Positions 2,384 through 53,920 of a stretch of DNA of 64,000 bases are shown here, in pieces. Source of the DNA: Mytilus trossulus (Eukaryota). Numbering within the stretch: the first letter of the stretch is position 1; every line of letters starts with the position of its first letter. The notes under the pieces are model-generated. The model did not search any database. It was not told where the DNA came from and saw nothing but the letters and a program-made list of their open reading frames with translations. Where the stretch lies: the NCBI RefSeq assembly GCF_036588685.1, contig NC_086376.1:39370001-39434000 (forward strand), read 5' to 3'. Position numbers and translations under genes: made by a program.

Positions 2384-2815
2384 TTGTTGTAAATCATCAG
2401 TCCTGCACTTCCTTCAACCATTATAAAAGAGGCATATTTTTCTAGATTTTGAAATAAGCTCGGGATATAAAATTGGTATCACTACAAATGAATTGAGTGT
2501 CATCTCTCAGACTATGTCTGATCGATCGCTATTACAAGTGCTGTGTACTGTCTCCGATTTTAGTGGATTCACATTCCCGAACATGATACCGTATTCATAA
2601 TTAGATTTGCTTATCTTTTCTGAGCACATAAAATATCGTCCTAGTTGTCATCTTATTTTTAAGGATCTGGGTATGTATTTGTCTCTCTGTTTTTCTAAAT
2701 TTGACTAACGCTACATTAGTCCCTTATTTCTGCGACAAATTAATCTAAATAAAACTCAAATGAGTGATACAAGGGGTAGAAAGTGTTGCGATCAAAGAGG
2801 GCGTGTAGTGTTATC

Positions 2816-5248
2816 TATGGAACGCCGTAGCTGCCTTATGTGTACTTGTTTTTAGATACGCTTATACTTTTCAATATATGCACATAGTTTTTCTATCTAT
2901 GCACATACTTTCTCTCTATATGCACATAGTTTACTTTATATGCACATAGTTTACTTTATATGCACATAGTTTTTCTATATATGCACATAGTTTTTCTATA
3001 TATGCACATAGTTTTTCTATATATGCACATAGTTTTACTATATATGCACATACTTTTTCTCTATACGCACATACTTGTTCTCTATATGCACATAGTTTAC
3101 TTTATATGCACATAGTTTTTCTCTAAATGCGCATCTGTTACTTATTCGTTTTTAATGCGCGGAGTATACGGTTGCACTTTGAATTAAATCGTTTTTCAAT
3201 TGTGTTCATGTCTCTGGTGGAAACAATGTGTTCTTACAGATGAAATGACCCTATAAGCGCGACTGCAATCGTTCCAGTGCTCGGTTAATACCCTGTTACT
3301 TATTCACTTATAATACGTTTGTTGTACGTTGCACCTTTTAAAAAAAAAAATCAATTGTGCCCATGTTTCTTGGTGTAACAATGTGTTCTTAGAAATGAAA
3401 TGACTCTATTAGCGCGCATGTACCCGTTCCAGCGCTCGGTAATTAACCTGTTACCTATTCGTTACCTATTCACTGATAATGCGTTTGTTGTACGTTGCAT
3501 CTTTTAGAAAAGGATTTTCAATTGTGTCCGTGTCTTTGATGGTAACAATGTGTTTTAAAAAATGAAATTACCCTATTAGCACGCATGTACCCGTTCCAGC
3601 GCTCGGTTAATACCCTGTTACCTATTCACTTTTAATACGTTTGTTGTACGTTGCACATTTTAGAAAAGGATTTTCAATTGTGTTAATGTCTCTGTTGGTA
3701 ACAATGTGTTCTTAAAGATGAAATGACCCTATTATTGCGCACGCACCCGTTCCAGACCTCGGTTAATACCTGTTACTTATTCACTTATAATACGTTTGTT
3801 GTACGTTGCACCTTTTAAAATAGGTTTTTGAATTGTGTCCGTGTCTCTTGTGGTAACAATGTGTTCTTAGAGATGAAATGACCCTATTAGCGCACATGCA
3901 CCTGTTCCAGCACTCGGTTAATACCCTGTTACCTTTTCATTACCTTTTCTTTACCTATTCACATAATGCACCTTGTTTCTGCTTTTGCACATATTTTCCT
4001 TGGAGAACCCTGACAAATATGGTTGAAAATCAAATATGATGAATAAAAGATAAAAATTTGCTCTTCTTAATGAACATTTATCATTGTCATAGAAAATTGT
4101 AGATTAAAGCAATGTCCCTATTTTTTGGTTGCAGCTTTGTGACAAGTACAGCTTTCTCTTAAATGTCAAATTTACTATTCTAATAAATTCAAACTCTGAA
4201 TGTTTACACTGCCATTACACATGGAATATTTAAACAAAATCATCCAAAACGTACAAACAAAAATAAGTCTGAACATACTACACTACACATAAAAAGTATT
4301 GCAAACGTATTATAAGTGAATAAGTAACGAATAGGTAACAGGGTATTAACCGAGCGCTGGAACGGGTACATACGCAGTAATAGGGTTATTTCATCTCTAA
4401 GAACACATTGTTACCACCTGAGACATGGACATAATTGAAAATCCTTTTCTAAAAGGTGCAACGTACAACAAACGTATTATAAGCGAATAAGTATCAGATA
4501 GGTAACAGGGTATTAGCCGAGCGCTGGAAACGGGTACATACGCGCTAATAGGATTATTTCCTCTTTAAGAACACATTGTTTATACCATCAGAAACATGAA
4601 CACAATCGAAAATCCTTTCCTAACAGGTGCAACGTATTAAAAAATGTATTATACGAGAATAATTAACGAATAGGTAACAGGGTATTAGCCAAGCGCTGGA
4701 ACGGGTACATGCGCGCTAATAGGGTCATTTCATCTTTAAAAACACATTGTTACACCAAGAGAAATGGGCACAATTGAATTTTTTTTTAAAAGGTGCAACG
4801 TACAACAAACGTATTATAAGTGAATAAGTAACAGGGTATTAACCGAGCACTGGAACGGTTGCAATCGCACTTATAGGGTCATTTCATCTGTAAGAACACA
4901 TTGTTACCACCAGAGACATGAACACAATTGAAAAACGATTTAATTCAAAGTGCAACCGTATACTCCGCGCATTAAAAACGAATAAGTAACAGATGTGCAT
5001 ATAGAGAAAAAGTATGTGCATATATAGTAAAACTATGTGCATATATAGAAAAACTATGGCATATATAGAAAAATTATGTGCGTATAAAGTAAACTATGTG
5101 CATATAAAGTAAACTATGTGCATATAGAGAAAAAGTATGTGCATATATAGAAAAAGTATGTGCATATATAGAAAAACTATGTGCATATATTGAAAAGTAT
5201 AAGCGTATCTAAAAACAAGTACACATAAGGCAGCTACGGCGTTCCATA
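2816..5248. mobile_element. Foldback-type non-autonomous DNA transposon, IS3EU-like termini, ~1-kb inverted arms made of tandem repeats
   Basis: Termini TATGGAACGCCGTAGCTGCC...GGCAGCTACGGCGTTCCATA; 6-bp TSD GTTATC (2810-2815, 5249-5254). Each arm has a ~21-bp array (TATGCACATAGTTTTTCTATA) then ~156-bp units; ~340-bp unique spacer. Confidence 0.9.
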
Positions 5249-5274
5249 GTTATCCAACTTCGATATATTTCTTT

Positions 5275-7619: not shown

Positions 7620-10600
7620 ATGAGTGAATTACAAGAAGAACAATTAACTGAGCAACAAACACAAGATGTTCTATGTATCTCATCATCAAGTGACACTGAA
7701 GATGATCAAGACTTTTCAACGGAAGAAGAAACCGAAACTAACGATTTTCAAAATAAAGAATCGATTTTTGCTAAACAAAACCTTACAATAAGAATAAAGA
7801 AAACAAAGTTACATGTTATCAGAGAACAGCTTACAAGAGAATCACCTGTATTTGAAAGAATGCTTCAGAGTGAGTTTCAAGAAAAAGATGCCGAAGAAAT
7901 CACACTTCCTGGAAAACGAGTCGAGGATTTCGTTTACTTTCTGCGATGCACACTGGCTGGCACTGATGATGATTTTACAGGTAGTCAGAAGTTTGGTTGC
8001 TGCCAATTACAGATTTGATTATGTTATTACACATTTTTGACACGAGTTGCTTCCCCTTTTCAATTATAGACTGTTTCTAAACCGGACATGATGTATTATA
8101 TTCAAAGCCAAAGGGATGTTAAATCGGATCCCTCGTGTAGAGAAAGTGCCATACAAAAATAAGAAGTTGTGGTTTGATTGCGAATGAGACAACTATTCAC
8201 CAAATTTGAAATTAAGGTGTGTGTCATGAAGGTACATGATTTGGCGAATTGCTGTCACTATAAAAAATGTCATTTTTCCAGAGGCAGTATAGAGTTTGTT
8301 TCTAGTCATGACATATATTTGGCATTCGACGAAAAACAAACAATAAATTATATTGAACATGATTGTGTACTCATTTTTAAGCTTACATGAGTCGACTATA
8401 TACAACTTAATTGTAAATAACCTTACCAAAACATTTTCACATTAAGACTTTACTAATTTTTCAATCCTCTGTTCAAGTTCACAAGTTCAGTGAATTATGA
8501 AAAAATGCAGGATCAAAACCGTAACCCATGTTTGTTTGTGAATTATTTCGATTCTAATAGGACAAATAAGTTCATTCAAATACTGAAGCCAGGGTGAGTA
8601 TGCCGTGTGTGTAGCTGTTATTTTTTACTCCTTGTTAGAAAAAGCTCAAATATTCTCATAAATCTTTAGCTTGCATTGATTATTTCGTTAATGACCTCTA
8701 GAAAAAATGTGTTTAATTCTCAAACCCAATATTTGCAATTTTTAATTTACGTGTTTTCTCGAAAGCTACCGTCAAATCCAAAATTGACATTTCGTAACGA
8801 AGGAGCTGCCATGTTGACTCGCTGAAAGGCGATCGACATTGCTTGAAAGATCGTCAATGTCGGACTCTTCGGATGACGAATTTATATCTTCTTCTTGATT
8901 ATTTTCCACAAGTAACGGCTCAAACTGATACGGTCGAATATCTAAACTTTGAGAATTGTCTTGTAAACTGCTGTCAACACCGTCCATTGTTTAATTACGC
9001 GAAATGCGATGTACTTCGTCCATATTGAGACATTTTCTCAGCTTGTATCCAGTGACGTCACCACGATCACGTGACCGGTATCTCATTAAAAATCAAAGAT
9101 GACGACAAGCGCTGGATTCTTTGACCATAAAAAGTTATTTTAATGAGGTTTTGACAAGAAAAATTAATTATAATATACTTTTTTACCAATTTGAATTGAT
9201 TAATTAAAAAAAAAAAAAAAAAAAAAAATTGTGTCACGTCTCCTTTAATATGCGAATAATGCAATAGAATAGAAAATAAAACAAAAGAAAACCTACCTCA
9301 GAATTCCATTTTGATACAATATTATACGAATTCGATGGTTACAAAATAGTTTATACTTTTGTGACATAAAATCGTAATATAAATATCAAGCTTATTTTCA
9401 TCCCTCAATGAACCCCCTGATTGTGGCGAAAGTTTTTCATGATGAAATTGACATTGCACAAAATATAGCTGTGTTACTATATTTAGGAAATAAACACAAC
9501 TAGTTGCAGTATATTAATTCTTTTTATCCTGCAATTGGGTGTCCTACTATACAGATACAGCCCTACAGATATCGCTATGCAGTATCTGTATACTATATAG
9601 ATATCGCTTTAAAGCTCCGCCCGCTGGCGGACTGAGTATTGTTTGAACCTGTGTGACCTCAGAATGACTGTGTATTCTAATTGCATTCCAATGACGATGA
9701 CAATTGTCGTTTTCAAATCTTGAATGTGTATGATTGTGTTACAAAATCAACCATGTCAATTTCAGCATGCAGGTTTAGTGAATGTCAAGTCTTAAGCGTA
9801 GGACAACTCGTACACTTCTGTTACAAATTTGACAATGTTTTGTTATTTGTTTTTACTTAGACAATATACGTATAGTGTCTTGAAATATGAAATTTATTTG
9901 TATGAGGCTTAGAAACGGGAAAATGCGAGGTTCTACCGAGCATTTTCCCGTTTCGTGCCGAATACAAATAAATTTCATATTTCAAGACACTATACGTATA
10001 TTGTTTTTATACTGAAATCGAAAAAAAAAATGAAAAATGAAAAAAACATGTAACAAAAATTGTTAAAAAAGTGTTTGGAATTTCCCTCTTGAGGTACCAT
10101 TTTGGGGTATTTCCCTATGAGCATAGTCCAGGTGGTAAGACATTGGCTTATTAAGCGTCGGAATTAGAAAGGGAAAATGAACTTAATTAATAACATTTGA
10201 TAAACATGATATATAAATAACCAATTTGAAGACATAAAAGTTTAAATTGAAAAAAGTTTGACCATTGTTACTTTACGTTGTCATGGTCGTGACGTGATGT
10301 TGTTGATGAAATACAATTAGGAGGCGGGGCTTATATGTCAGTTGGGGTCATTGACGTATAAAGCTAACGTTTATACGTATAGCTTTATCTGTACAGTAAA
10401 CTAGCTGATTGCAGTATAATGTTGAAATTAGTGGTTAACTTGTTATGTTATAAAAGATAATTATTCACCTTGAGCGATGTATTATTGTTGACCATTCGAG
10501 ATTCTTTTTTGCGAACCCGTCTTCAGCGTAATGTGTGATTTTGATATTACTACGCGGGCCTCAATTAAGGGATAATCCCGATTACAAATCGAAAATAAAT

Positions 10601-12044
10601 GCTAAATATGTTAGTTTTTGTTTCTTTCAAAACACAAACGAAATACAGAATGAATTGCAGGATAAAGACAATAACCGTTTAGTGTCTTTAAATATCAGCT
10701 GTATTTGTACTCGGCTCGAAACAGGTGTAGTAGCTCGCTTAAAGCTCGCATACACATTGTTTCCTATCCTCGTACAAATACAGCTGATATTTAAAGACAC
10801 TAAACAGTTATTGTCTATTTATTATGCATCCGAATAAAAACAAAAGTTCTTGTGTCTTTTGTTTTATAACAATTTATAATACAATAAAATCGACAAAGCG
10901 TTTGCAAATAGGTTCAAATACATGTGGATTTACGTGGGAGGTATATTGTAACACCATTATTATGTATATTTCTGAGTCTGCGCTAAGTATAGATATATTG
11001 AGAATTTTCACACTGTTGTTTACAAAGCGAAAGAAGCACGTCATATTAATAGAATTGCAAATTATGTTTATCCGGTAAGTAGTCTAATTCGGTAGGTCAC
11101 ATTCGTGAAAAAGGTAAGGGGATTGTAGTTACGCTACATTGAAGACCTGTTGGTGACCTATGCTGTTGTTTTTTATATGGTCGGGTTGTTGTCTCTTTGA
11201 CACATTCCCCATTTCCATTCTCAATTTTACAACATAACGAACATATCCGATATAATGAAACGGTTATTCCATAATGGTCAACCAACTCGTGATGGCGTCC
11301 GTAAAATTTACGAAGGGATGATTTTGACATCACCATTTGGAACTCTTTGTTTAATAGCTTCCTTGTAAGTAGCAATCCTCTATCAAGAAAGTCATGATAA
11401 GAAATACAAGCCCGGAAATATCGTTTCAATTGGGAGATATATACTCCGTATGCAGGCGCTGCTGGAATGTTGCTACATAGAAATGGAAAATTTACAATTG
11501 GGAAGCTGAAATTATCTCCTTTGTCAGAAAGTCTGCTGCAGTGCTTTTTGCTTTTGTTTAAAAAAAGTGTACAATTTTATTTTATTTTTATTTTGCAGAT
11601 GTGACTGTTCATAAGGTACTTCCTCTTGCGCATGAATATCAGACTAAAAGAACACTTGATAAAGCAGATTTATTTTTGAAGGAAAAATGTGAAACAGAAT
11701 CTGATCATTTATCTTCTCAGCAGATAATCGAAAATATCATAGAAGCAGAACTGTACAATCTACCACAATATTTGGATGCATGTATAAACGTTGCATCCAG
11801 AAAGTACTACCGGAAATTAGTTCAGAATGATCGATTTGAAAATATTTCCATAGAGACAAGGTATAATATCTCTTTGAAACGTTGGGAGGATATCGATACA
11901 ATGTTTGAAAAAACCGGCTTTTTTAAACAGGTAATACAATATGGATACTATTATGAGTCCCCAAAAAAGACTCGTACTCGTGCACCTTCACTTTCATTTG
12001 AAAATGTAGGTGAACAGATGAAGTCGTTCATGCACAACAATTAG
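7620..12044 (+). CDS. BTB/POZ-domain protein, two coding exons 7620-7980 and 11599-12044, 268 aa
   Basis: Exon 1 (acceptor TTTCAG at 7528, acidic N-terminus, LHVIREQLTRESPVFERMLQSEFQEKDAEEITLPGK) ends ACAG|GT in phase 1; exon 2 TTGCAG|AT restores D-VTVHKVLPLAHEYQ, the usual end of a BTB domain. 361+446=807 nt, no internal stop. Confidence 0.9.
8490..9244 (-). mobile_element. Kolobok-like transposon remnant in the BTB intron with an N-terminal piece of a KolX/P2X7-C-terminal-like ORF
   Basis: Terminus reads TTAA|AGGAGACGTGACAC on - strand (TTAA 9245-9248); ORF 8987-8772 has IRPYQFEP followed by an acidic tract and RL. Left boundary not found. Confidence 0.55.
9524..10817 (-). mobile_element. 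Hairpin-ended, TSD-less non-autonomous element, family Y copy 1 (host of a nested insertion)
   Basis: Reverse complement of 23285-24015 apart from the 9858-10419 insert; terminal hairpin 10666-10817; end 9524-9536 TTATCCTGCAATT is the exact complement of 10653-10665. Confidence 0.85.
9858..10419 (+). mobile_element. Hairpin-ended, TSD-less non-autonomous element, family X, nested in family Y
   Basis: ~75-bp-arm hairpin 9858-10006; 3' end GATTGCAGTATAA complementary (12/13) to 10007-10019; absent from the paralogous Y copy, which shows the empty site. Confidence 0.85.
11078..11530 (-). mobile_element. Penelope-like retroelement RT C-terminal fragment
   Basis: Encodes FSFPIVNFPFLCSNIPAAPAYGVYISQLKRYFRACISYHDFLDRGLLLTRKLL; same family as 20448-21170; interrupted by a dispersed repeat at ~11132-11228. 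Confidence 0.8.
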
Positions 12045-21690: not shown

Positions 21691-23284
21691 TTAAAAAGAT
21701 AAAAAAAAAAAGTTGCTTAAATTCTATGTCATTAGTCCTTTAACAGGTGAGTACCTTTGCTGAGTCATTGTTAACCGGTACGGAAAATGTGTTGGAAGAA
21801 AAGTGTATGTTGTCTTTCGGATACTAACTAATTTATTTTGTTTGCTATGAATGCCCTTCTATGCATAATTTGACAAATACAAGTAAAAATTGTTCGATTG
21901 TACGATTTGATATCATTGTAAAAAAATATATATATAACTATAAATTACCTCTCTTCCAAGCCCAATAGTCCGGCCAGCACAAGTTAAAGTATCGGAAATT
22001 GTTCGTCGCAATCCCTGGAACAAGTACATAAAGTACGATAAGTATAACGAATAAAGGTCCCTGAAGACTTGGCATTCTGTAAAAAAAATCACATTGTTAC
22101 AATTTGTTTGGGAAAATTTGCCCTTGAAGTAAATGCGCAACAACAGTTCTTGCATGTGTTTGTAAAACTTTTTGGTTGCATGTGTATATTAAGATTTTTC
22201 TTTCTCTTTCGTCATTTGGAATATGGGAATAGCAATTCTCTATGACATGCGGGTAATAAAAAAAAAACCTACAAGGCGTTTTAAACATTCCAACATTTAT
22301 CATTATTAAACAGTAAATTTACAGAAAATGAAAATACCCATGATATTTCAAGACAGCACAAAATTGACAAATTGGTTGTATCAGTTGATGTTTCCTTTAT
22401 AAATCAGATCAAAAGAAAAAAAAAAACGAATTACCTTGGTTTGCGATCTGTTCCAAGTCAAATTATATAATAATCTAAGTGTGGAATTTATAAAATCCAA
22501 ATGCTATATATCCATATAAATTGCACAATTACTTCCGAAACTTACATCATCATTATCATATGAAGATAAAAACCCAATGAAACATAAGAATTTGTGGAAA
22601 ATCCAAACTTCTCAAAATCACGAGTAAGATAAAACACTGAGAAATAGATAAATAAAACAATACTGTGCGGGTCTGGAGAGGGTTTATAGAGAAGATAACG
22701 ATTGACAAAAGGTGCAGAATGAAGGGTCAAACAATTATAATAGAGAAAAAATAACCAAAATTTAAGAAAATGGAATTATGGGGTGCAAACATATATAGAA
22801 TAGAGAATAATGGGCAAAATAGATAAAGAATAAAAAAAAAACATGGTAAAAAAAAAAGAATAAAGAAATTAGGAACCGCCATATAGACCCTCTAATATAG
22901 ACACAATCATCAGAGGCTTAATTCTGATTAATTTACCCTTTGTTTTGTAATTGCTTATCAAGTTTATTTCTCAAGACTAGGGATAGTTTATATCGTTGTA
23001 GATGCTTTATATCAGCAGACAATGTAAAAAGTGGTTGTGTTTAAGATTTTTAATTAAAATATCTGACCTGATTTTATACACTGTTTAGCTTTTGAATGAA
23101 AGGGCGTATTTAACAATTCACTATGCCTAATGTTTTATAGTTTTGAAGCATGATTCAACAATAAAACACATCTCAATGACATCTCAATAGCGATCATAGT
23201 AAAACGAGTACTTCAAATTTTATATCCGAAGTTACAGTTTAATCTGTTCAGCAGATTATAGTAGTAAGGGCCTGTTAGAATATA

Positions 23285-24015
23285 TAGACAATAACTGTTT
23301 AGTGTCTTTAAATATCAGCTGTATTTGTACGAGGCTACGAGACAAGGTGTATGCGAGCTTTAAGCGAGCTACTACACCTGTTTCGAGCCGAGTACAAATA
23401 CAGCTGATATTTAAAGACCCTAAACAGTTATTGTCTTTATCCTGCAATTAATTCTGTATATTTTTTGTGTTTTGAAAGCCACAAAACTTACATATTTAGC
23501 ATTTATTTTCTATTTGTAATCCCTTGAGGCCCGCGTAGTAATATCAAAATCACACATTACGCTGAAACGGGTTCGAAAAAAAAAAAAAGAATCTCGATTG
23601 GTCAACAATAATACATCGCTCAAGGTGAATAATTATCTTTTATAACATAACAAGTTAACCACTTATTTCAACAGTAAAAACAAATAACAAAACATTGTCA
23701 AATTTGAAACAGAAGTGTACGAGTTGTCCTACGCTTCAGACTTGACATTCACCAAACATGCATGCTGAAATTGACATGGTTGATTTTGTAACACAATCAT
23801 ACACGTTCAATACACGTTCAAGTTTTGAAATCGACAATTGTCATCGTCATTGGAATGCAACTGGAATACACATTCTGAGGTCACACAGGTTCAAACAGTA
23901 CTCTTAGTCCGGCAGTGGGCGGAGCTTTAAAGCGATATCTGTATAGTATACAGATACAGCATATCGATATCTGTAGGGCTGTATCTGTATAATAGGACAC
24001 CCAATTGCAGGTTAA
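23285..24015 (+). mobile_element. Hairpin-ended element, family Y copy 2 (uninterrupted)
   Basis: Hairpin 23285-23436, then TTATCCTGCAATT (23437-23449) complementary to 3' end AATTGCAGGTTAA (24003-24015). Confidence 0.85.
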
Positions 24016-24332: not shown

Positions 24333-24607
24333 TACGGAAGCGTATTAGCGCCACACATTTTTTTTTTTTTTCCCTATGTTTGCGTTATAACGCAAACCTT
24401 TGCGTTGTAACGCAAACCTTTGCGTTAAACGCAAACATTTGCGTTATAACGCAAATCTTTGCGTTACAACGCAAAGGTTTGCGTTTGCGTTATAACGCAA
24501 AGGTTTGCTTTATAGGTTTGCGTTATAACGCAAAGGTTTGCAAAGGTTTGCGTTATAACGCAAACATAGGGAAAAAAAAAAATGTGTGGCGCTAATACGC
24601 TTCCGTA
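24333..24607. mobile_element. IS3EU-like palindromic MITE
   Basis: TACGGAAGCGTATTAGCGCCACACATTTT...AAAATGTGTGGCGCTAATACGCTTCCGTA; 6-bp TSD TATAAC (24327-24332, 24608-24613); core of repeated TTTGCGTTATAACGCAAA palindromes. Confidence 0.9.
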
Positions 24608-39385: not shown

Positions 39386-41306
39386 ATGAAGTTCCTATTG
39401 GCCTTTTTCTTGCTTGGTAAGTTAAGGAAGACATATATATGCGTCATTAACGTAAATAAAACTGCTAAATTTTCAAGAATAAAGTTACATTTTAATGATT
39501 ATTTCAAACTTTAAACTATGACAACTGTTACGAAAACGTATTTCTACATACGGAATTTATAACTTCGTTTTTTTTTCAAAACCAAATCAATAATGAAGTT
39601 AAAGATACAACTCTTCCATCAAACCTTCATAATTTTAAAACAGAGAAGCTCTCACCACGGCAGTATTCTCGCCATTAATGAAATCGATGTAAAGGAAAGT
39701 TAATTTTTGACGGAGAAGTTTAAATTTTTAAAGTGATCAGAATTTTACCATACTAGATATAACTTGAAAAAAGTAAGTTTCCAAATGGATTTAAAAAGTG
39801 ATGACTGACGATCGAAAAAAACTTTTTTTAAGGCTGGTTATATTTGCTTTGAATGATTGTTTTAATTACTAGTAACTAAGTTTTAATTAACAGGATTCTC
39901 GTGTATTCTGGGTGACAAATGTGTTGTGTATAAAGAAGGTGAAACAATACCAAGTCTTCCCACTGGTTCTAGATATGGCAGAACGTGTCATAGTATTTTT
40001 AGAGACAGAAATAATTACTGTGTTGAATGGGATTGTCCTAAAACAGACTGCGCTGATCCAATTGTACCAGAAACAGGTTGTCCCTTTTGTAATGGTAAGT
40101 AAGAGTCGGAATATTTTTATTAGAAAATGTAACTGCATAGCTGGAGTGTGAATGCAGGTTTGCAGAAGGGAGAATAAAGGGGAGATATAAAGAATGGATC
40201 AAAATGGACCAAAATGTAAAGAATAGAGAACATGAGGTTCTAAAATATTAACAATAGAGAATTCTTGGCAAAAAATATTAAGAATAGAGAATAATGGACT
40301 TAATAAATTAAGAAAAATTTCAGAAATGAAGGACACCGATCCAAACACTCCTTTATAAATTTGAAGGAGGCTGAATGTTCATTTCAACAACAAACACAAT
40401 CTCAATTTTAGCGCCTGTAACCTGTCAACGTTACCATTTATTTAAAACTGATGTGGATAGTAGGAATAAAAAAGATGTGGTATGATTGCCAATGAGACAA
40501 CACTCCATAAGATACCATAAATGACACAGGTCACCGTACGGTCTTCATCAATGAGCTCATACCACATAGTCAGGTATAGAAGTCCCAGATGACAAATGTA
40601 AAAAAATTCAAACGAGATAATTATCGGCCTGATTGATATATAAAATAATAAACGAAAAAGAAATATGAGATACAGCAACAAACGACGGTTGTATAACTTG
40701 ACTTCTATTTAATTGTTTTAATTTTGGTATGATTTAAGAACATGTATTTCATAATTTAAAATCCCTTTTTGATATAATTTAATTTTGGATGTAACGCGTC
40801 TTCTGATTGGCTGACGTTATTATGCTATGAGCCCATAGACATAATTTAGTCATGAGACCGTGACGTCAGGAACGTTTTTTCATGGTTTTCTACGGTTTAA
40901 AATGGAATTTAGAATTAAATCATAAGAAATGACTGTAATATTTTTTCTGTCTATTCGAAATAACACAAAAAATTTGGTACACACTGTTAAATAACCTTCA
41001 TTGACAGAAAAAATATTAGTCATTCCTAAATCAATTTCAAATCTAATGTGGAAAAATTTCGAACCCTTTTATCTATGCTGAGTTCATTATTATACACATT
41101 TCCGACAGGGCTGTTCATTGTTACTATATGAGACAAACATAGTTACGAATTATTTTGTTTCAGGTACATGTGTCAATGGAGGAAGAGTATTTAGAGAAGA
41201 CGAGCATTTCACCTGCGATGATGGATGTAATGGATGTACCTGCCACTCGACCACACTTATGATGTGCTACATGCAGGAACCTCCAGAATTATGCAAAGGT
41301 CTATGA
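39386..41306 (+). CDS. Small secreted cysteine-rich protein (VWC/pacifastin-like modules); exons 39386-39416, 39894-40094, 41164-41306; 124 aa
   Basis: MKFLLAFFLLGFSCILG-DKCVVYKEGETIPSLPTGSRYGRTCHSIFRDRNNYCVEWDCPKTDCADPIVPETGCPFCNGTCVNGGRVFREDEHFTCDDGCNGCTCHSTTLMMCYMQEPPELCKGL*; two phase-1 GTAAGT...CAG introns; 375 nt; hydrophobic signal peptide; 14 Cys in the mature part; ATTAAA ~41390. Confidence 0.9.
40773..41027 (-). mobile_element. Hairpin-ended element, family Z, in intron of the Cys-rich gene
   Basis: End TATAATTTAATT complementary to internal AATTAAATCATAA (40913-40925), directly followed by hairpin arms 40926-40951 and 41003-41027. Confidence 0.7.
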
Positions 41307-53777: not shown

Positions 53778-53920
53778 GGCCTATATTTAGTCCAATTAAT
53801 TATGCTGTCTTGGAAGGCTAGTTAAAATTTTTGCTTTGACGCCTTCCTGAGACTCTAAAGCGTCAAAGAAAAAAATATAATAGCTTTTCAAGATGTCATA
53901 ATTATTTGGATTAGGCCTAT
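53778..53920. repeat. Imperfect ~65-bp-arm hairpin in intron 1, probably another hairpin-ended element
   Basis: TCCAATTAATTATGCTGTCTTGGAAGGCTA...CTTTGACGC / GCGTCAAAG...TAGCTTTTCAAGATGTCATAATTATTTGGA. Confidence 0.65.

Follow-up and report, generated by a model that had tools for sequence, protein, structure and literature searches.

The three families of non-coding elements that the first-pass annotation had described in the window (the whole 64,000-nucleotide stretch of Mytilus trossulus DNA analysed here, contig NC_086376.1, positions 39,370,001 to 39,434,000) share one end design, and two of them have partners that carry a tyrosine recombinase (YR) gene. This design, written A-loop-A'-B'...B, consists of a long terminal hairpin (A and A'), a short segment B' that follows it and a complementary segment B at the far end, and it was present in X, Y and Z, as had been claimed. 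Judged from their sequences, families X and Y arose by deletion from CryptonA YR transposons and carry no genes, since YR elements with identical ends were found for both and these gave no match to reverse transcriptase (RT), DDE, HUH or helicase families. Family Z, placed solely by its design and its target, is likely to be another CryptonA deletion derivative. The families had been taken as unrelated to one another; this is not so for X and Y, which are 74% identical across their first 161 bases, corresponding to the hairpin region.

The X copy of the window (9857-10419, plus strand) is a non-autonomous CryptonA element inserted without target site duplication (TSD) into a copy of Y, and its ends are those of the YR-coding elements at loci L220 and L221. 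Its hairpin (9861-10004), established by folding and alignment, contains two tandem GA/GA mismatches. It is followed by B' (10007-10019), in which 12 of 13 bases are complementary to the far end, and the last 13 bases of the element, fixed by sequence and by aligned copies, form B (10407-10419). Copy 1 of Y (9524-10818, minus strand), within which X is inserted, has the ends of the YR-bearing element at locus L231, with its hairpin at 10666-10816, B' at 10653-10665 and B at 9524-9536. Copy 2 of Y (23284-24015, plus strand) has the hairpin at 23286-23436, B' at 23437-23449 and B at 24003-24015. The Z copy (40774-41030, minus strand) retains B' (40911-40923) and B (40774-40786), and 46 bases are missing from its left arm. 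The host of Y copy 1 is family W (8539-11048, plus strand), which is also non-autonomous, is older and follows the same design; most of the hairpin is missing from this copy, and its ends are similar to those of YR families F6 and F8. Three elements are nested at this locus, X in Y and Y in W, and the empty site of the Y copy 1 insertion was present in other W copies, with no TSD. Mutual insertion of this kind appears frequent, as a Z copy was also seen within YR family F11 (L167, L168, L208 and L212).

The boundaries first proposed for X, Z and the two Y copies were adjusted to these positions. The terminal sequences are TTAGAC...GTATAA for X, ATAGAC...GGATAA for Y and TTAAGG...AATTAT for Z, so that the formula (T)TA...TAA given earlier is only approximate, Y beginning with ATAG and Z finishing with TTAT. 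The hairpin arms, previously put at 25 to 75 bp, are of 64 to 69 base pairs in full-length copies of X, Y and Z, the window copy of Z being short by the missing 46 bases of its left arm. Other observations were made in the window: a contig spanning the whole Y(X) insertion (9524-10818) in two of four DNA runs, with a short side of only 20 bases, which may represent an allele free of the insertion or a different W copy; a MITE-like element (24333-24607) whose terminal inverted repeats enclose a tandem array of 20-base units; a short palindromic element (53788-53913), of which a look-alike that is abundant genome-wide lies within the X partner's intron; and a large fold-back element with long inverted arms made of 21-base and approximately 155-base repeats (2812-5252).

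In the 1.3-Gb genome, the first-look candidates numbered 1303 for X, 1283 for Y and 2159 for Z, of which 40 were scored per family. The ends were fixed in 30 of 30 X loci and 30 of 30 Y loci, and the boundaries thus proved stable across copies, as the first-pass annotation required; both end motifs of Z were found in 19 of 30 loci, with two near-duplicates set aside. When duplicated loci were dropped, a set of 76 copies was obtained (29 X, 28 Y and 19 Z). Paralogous empty sites were available for 15 of these 76 copies; 13 were clean, which bears out the claim that no TSD is made, one had four extra bases in an AT run and one was uninformative.

A search with the DUF3504 domain gave 150 scored matches out of 341 candidates, and we examined 100 stretches around DUF3504 matches and 20 others reached via follow-up searches. 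Locus L220 holds a 3851-base element bearing both X ends, which are identical to those of X. This element codes for a predicted two-exon tyrosine recombinase with DUF3504 and Phage_integrase domains, in which the R, K, HxxR, H and Y residues are intact, and which matches a 527-amino-acid database protein, named Mytilus, at 99%. Further genomic copies of the X partner are present, and the catalytic columns of its recombinase were invariant in 32 relatives. In one run, presumed to be RNA, a contig bridges the predicted intron, the short side being just 29 bases. In the X partner at locus L221 (1705-2787), the contigs of three runs omit 1081 bases that are bounded by GT..AG when read on the strand opposite the recombinase gene; this gap may correspond to an antisense transcript spliced over exon 2 or to a deletion derivative. 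For Y, locus L231 contains a 3109-base element with identical ends in which the YR gene is broken. Among the 122 long YR loci, the 11 loci of the X-partner family and 30 short loci, no coding partner of Z was found. The long YR elements with the same ends for which a search had been proposed were thus recovered for X and Y, and none for Z.

The 60 open frames of at least 110 amino acids from 24 elements all lacked matches to the RT, DDE, HUH and helicase families (60/60), which agrees with the earlier proposal that no DDE or Rep/Hel protein would be encoded by autonomous partners. The GCR1_C domain was also sought at the C-terminus of the partner YR and gave no match. The CryptonA label of the partners is carried by their DUF3504 domain. 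X, Y and Z had been proposed to be miniature parasites of a DIRS/Crypton-like machine whose only requirement was the geometry; the non-autonomous state, the tyrosine recombinase and the Crypton side of this proposal (CryptonA, DUF3504) were retained for X and Y, DIRS templating was not, no RT being found, and geometry is not the sole requirement, since X and Y also retain the end sequences of their partners. Near-identical head-to-tail arrays of full-length YR elements were observed at L136, L137, L150, L174 and L216, and inverted pairs of YR elements at L149 and L169.

The 122 long YR loci fell into 27 multi-copy clusters and 25 singletons. The full plan was found in 19 of the 27 multi-copy clusters, 3 of 27 had a hairpin and no scored far end, and 5 of 27 had no hairpin at their shared boundaries. 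With 4 of the 25 singletons, 23 families were scored. B' matched the far end of its own family at 10.78 of 12 bases on average and the ends of other families at 6.95 (506 cross-family pairs), in a set where some families are sisters, where the ends of three singletons were chosen via the match itself and where F11 was kept at its score of 7 with its end placed three bases short. A match of at least 10 of 12 bases was obtained for 21 of 23 own ends and for 10 of the 506 cross-family pairs, and the observed sum over own ends was reached by none of 100,000 permutations. The geometry was thus upheld as a shared rule, B and B' co-varying across families. The terminal hairpin is of 38 to 82 base pairs across families, and comparison of the X and Y hairpins showed 15 compensatory pairs, 48 unchanged pairs and 1 broken pair, so that A and A' covary between these two families.

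In these elements B' adjoins A' and is in register with the junction that would form if the two ends were joined. A'B' had been thought to be the exact complement of this junction; the junction strand is in fact two bases longer in X, Y and Z, and a bulge of one to three bases is usual between the two strands. The element's own site contains, in X and Y, TAA and ATA separated by seven bases on the junction strand and five on the internal strand, and the spacing is the same in Z.

In tests on other organisms, a scan of genomes returned two contigs, L289 and L290, one with the full plan and the other too short; these Crypton-bearing contigs lie within two metagenome-assembled bacterial genomes and are probably animal contamination. 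The YR-coding contig with the same plan, from a metagenome-assembled genome, has stacked GA/GA, is single copy with ends placed from the plan, and is probably a eukaryotic contaminant. A metagenome scan for the plan found one short locus only, and a viral scan gave seven weak matches, none with a hairpin.

We favour, with some confidence, the view that X, Y and Z move as one folded DNA strand, by a single-strand recombination like that of integrons and CTX phage. The wider proposal, that animal CryptonA is a eukaryotic single-strand YR system, parallel to bacterial integrons and CTX phage, in which the two ends and an internal complement of one folded strand make up the recombination site and which copies itself by one-strand exchange into TAT-N6-ATA, seems to us only slightly favoured. 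A folded single strand is suggested by the presence of GA/GA on one strand, by the free orientation of the gene and by the one-sided spacer in TAT^N6-ATA. The two-by-two internal loops of the hairpins of 24 families were GA/GA in 19 of 26 cases and GA/AA or AA/GA in 5 of 26. Folding of the opposite strand gave TC/TC in 18 of 24 cases and GA/GA in none, which shows that the bias is in the sequence and is not an effect of the energy model. An apex of the form GA-stem-loop-stem-GA was present in 22 of 26 rows, and its TC version in 0 of 26; Z does not follow this rule. The YR gene shares the strand of the hairpin in 5 of 23 elements and occupies the opposite strand in 18, and this independence of gene orientation from the hairpin strand argues against an RNA fold or a bias tied to the mRNA. 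Tandem GA mismatches stack unusually strongly in DNA (PMC8163305), and GNA/GNNA mini-hairpins are far stabler in DNA than in RNA (PMC13037366). In 13 of 24 families the loop was predicted to be C-GNA-G or C-GNNA-G, and one of these motifs occurred at the apex in 17 of 24.

Several results count against the single-strand model. The GNA/GNNA mini-loop is absent from X and Y. Z breaks the apex rule and has no coding partner among the YR loci examined, and 5 of the 27 clusters lack a hairpin at their shared boundaries. The energy of the whole hairpin favours the GA strand by only about 0 to 5 kcal/mol, and does not do so in F2. Folding of the naked strand gave expected B-B' pairs of 12.5 for Y, 4.1 for X and 0.7 for Z, good for Y only, and the B-B' pairing of Y was equal on the opposite strand.

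Pooling of the 76 sites gave the target TAT^N6-ATA, i.e. inverted half-sites about six free bases, with counts, out of 76, of 59 for T-3, 72 for A-2, 44 for T-1, 39 for A+7, 60 for T+8 and 44 for A+9. The element is positioned at the left edge of the spacer, the entire six-base host spacer remains to its right, and its first four bases are invariant in X and Y. A spacer of the element on the right side was seen in no aligned copy. Tyrosine recombinases cleave at the edge of the spacer. A single exchange made on the GA strand and followed by replication would give the observed pattern. Two exchanges over unmatched spacers would also give swapped or host-derived spacers, and none was seen; a spacer left on one side only could also arise from a two-strand exchange if mismatch repair then favoured one strand. 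The idea that pairing with the internal complement sets the first base of the target was rejected, as it fits Y and not F6 or F14. Tandem B|A junctions (in X, Z and F4) were likewise discarded as proof of a circle, being explained by insertion at the end of an older copy.

From these patterns we infer the folding, the single-strand excision, the one-strand integration and the replicative resolution of the following scheme. The strand A-loop-A'-B'...B would be exposed, probably at a replication fork; A would pair with A' and B with B', so that the two ends would lie on a single uninterrupted partner strand and a double-stranded recombinase site would form. The recombinase would cut the exposed strand at both ends and exchange once to release a single-stranded circle, whose B|A junction would pair with A'B' around the small bulge, while the element would be retained on the other strand and the copy number would rise as a result. 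The folded circle would then recombine with an AT-rich TAT-N6-ATA target by a one-strand exchange at the spacer's left edge; resolution of the integration junction would fall to replication, and no duplication would remain.

A rather unlikely alternative is that the elements move as classic Cryptons, by a double-stranded circle and two strand exchanges, A' and B' being extra binding sites or an extruded cruciform that helps to synapse the ends. The double-stranded circle is the published model in the Crypton parts of two sources (PMC3212892; PMC13565253), and the target has an ordinary YR geometry, the usual one being inverted repeats of 11 to 13 bases around 6 to 8 bases (PMC3212892). The clean excision of CryptonF seen in Chlamydomonas (PMC9977147) also fits it and counts against a strict copy-out model, which does not predict it, though CryptonF is another Crypton group. 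Binding sites, however, require neither arms of 60 to 80 base pairs maintained by compensatory change nor GA/GA on one strand only, and two exchanges predict the host-derived or swapped spacers that were not seen. It is improbable, though conceivable, that a single-stranded stage exists in which the hairpin is mainly a priming or protection signal, the strand then becoming a double-stranded circle that recombines normally. Nuclease-resistant GNA/GNNA mini-hairpins do occur at the origins of single-strand phages (PMC13037366), and the mini-loop was found in 17 of 24 apices, yet X and Y amplify without it, and the register of B' with the junction (at least 10 of 12 bases in 21 of 23 families) would be left unexplained.

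We consider reverse transcription of an RNA copy in trans, with the internal complement as template for the ends, very improbable, despite the resemblance of the geometry to the internal complementary region of DIRS (PMC13465315). The partners have no RT, the left end is stably unlike the internal complement (a two-base difference), gene orientation is independent of the hairpin strand and the loop between A and A' was never inverted (0 of 76 copies), an inversion that duplex recombination of inverted sites would also produce. Literal DIRS-style templating of the ends was rejected, because templated copying would erase this difference at the terminus and the fixed arm mismatches, and both persist. 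Least credible of all is a Helitron2/Helentron-type rolling-circle element, which has a similar outline, with asymmetric repeats of 8 to 15 bases beside a terminal hairpin (PMC3627910), and makes no TSD either. The target here has inverted half-sites around six bases, and Helitron2 is ruled out for X and Y by their partners with identical ends, which code for a YR and not for RepHel. Movement as one folded strand is the reading that we retain.

The end rule makes the mechanism directly testable, since it supplies well-defined substrates, a candidate enzyme that is intact and mutations that can be rescued, and it provides a structural rule by which Crypton ends can be located and repeats without genes classified; a compact recombinase that places single-stranded circles without duplication would be a possible tool. 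In its treatment of Cryptons, a 2026 review states that their transposition was never demonstrated and assumes a double-stranded circle (PMC13565253). The copy number increased in the sole study described as catching Cryptons move (PMC9977147), which simple excision does not explain.

The elements resemble CryptonA as described in PMC3212892 by their single DUF3504 YR gene, the lack of RT and of a TSD, and the abundance of deletion derivatives sharing both ends. They differ by their terminal hairpin of 38 to 82 base pairs, their far-end complement and their palindromic target, as the description of animal Cryptons in PMC3212892 gives them no terminal repeats, direct or inverted. We read this statement as concerning ordinary terminal repeats, the hairpin and the far-end complement being an overlooked or variant feature. 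The Eulor5/6 consensuses start with a long hairpin, and a mention of the hairpin may hence already stand in database notes. Eulor5/6 were tied to salmon Cryptons via their termini (PMC5753468), the passage on fungal CryptonA in PMC13465315 reports no clear repeats, and that on Cryptons in PMC12130899 no conserved structural features. No description of this end architecture was found in the literature searched, Repbase and Dfam lying outside the search. This is a known family with an apparently undescribed end design, and the single-strand route proposed for it is known in bacteria and not shown for Cryptons.

Comparison with other systems showed that DIRS elements share the internal sequence complementary to the joined ends, the YR and the lack of TSD, and differ in that RT, RNase H and gag are absent here and the ends are not templated by the internal copy. 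IS200/IS605 elements share strand-specific hairpins, the lack of TSD and a single-stranded circle (PMC13565253), and Helitron2 asymmetric inverted repeats and the lack of TSD (PMC3627910), but both use HUH enzymes while the partners here are YRs. The closest likeness in the proposed reaction is with attC (IntI) and the CTX attP (XerC/D), where a YR acts on a folded single strand chosen by its unpaired bases, with one exchange and replicative resolution (PMC3458562; PMC3442271). These systems are bacterial and attC is one local palindrome, whereas the Crypton site, in the reaction that we infer, would be built from both ends laid on the internal strand.
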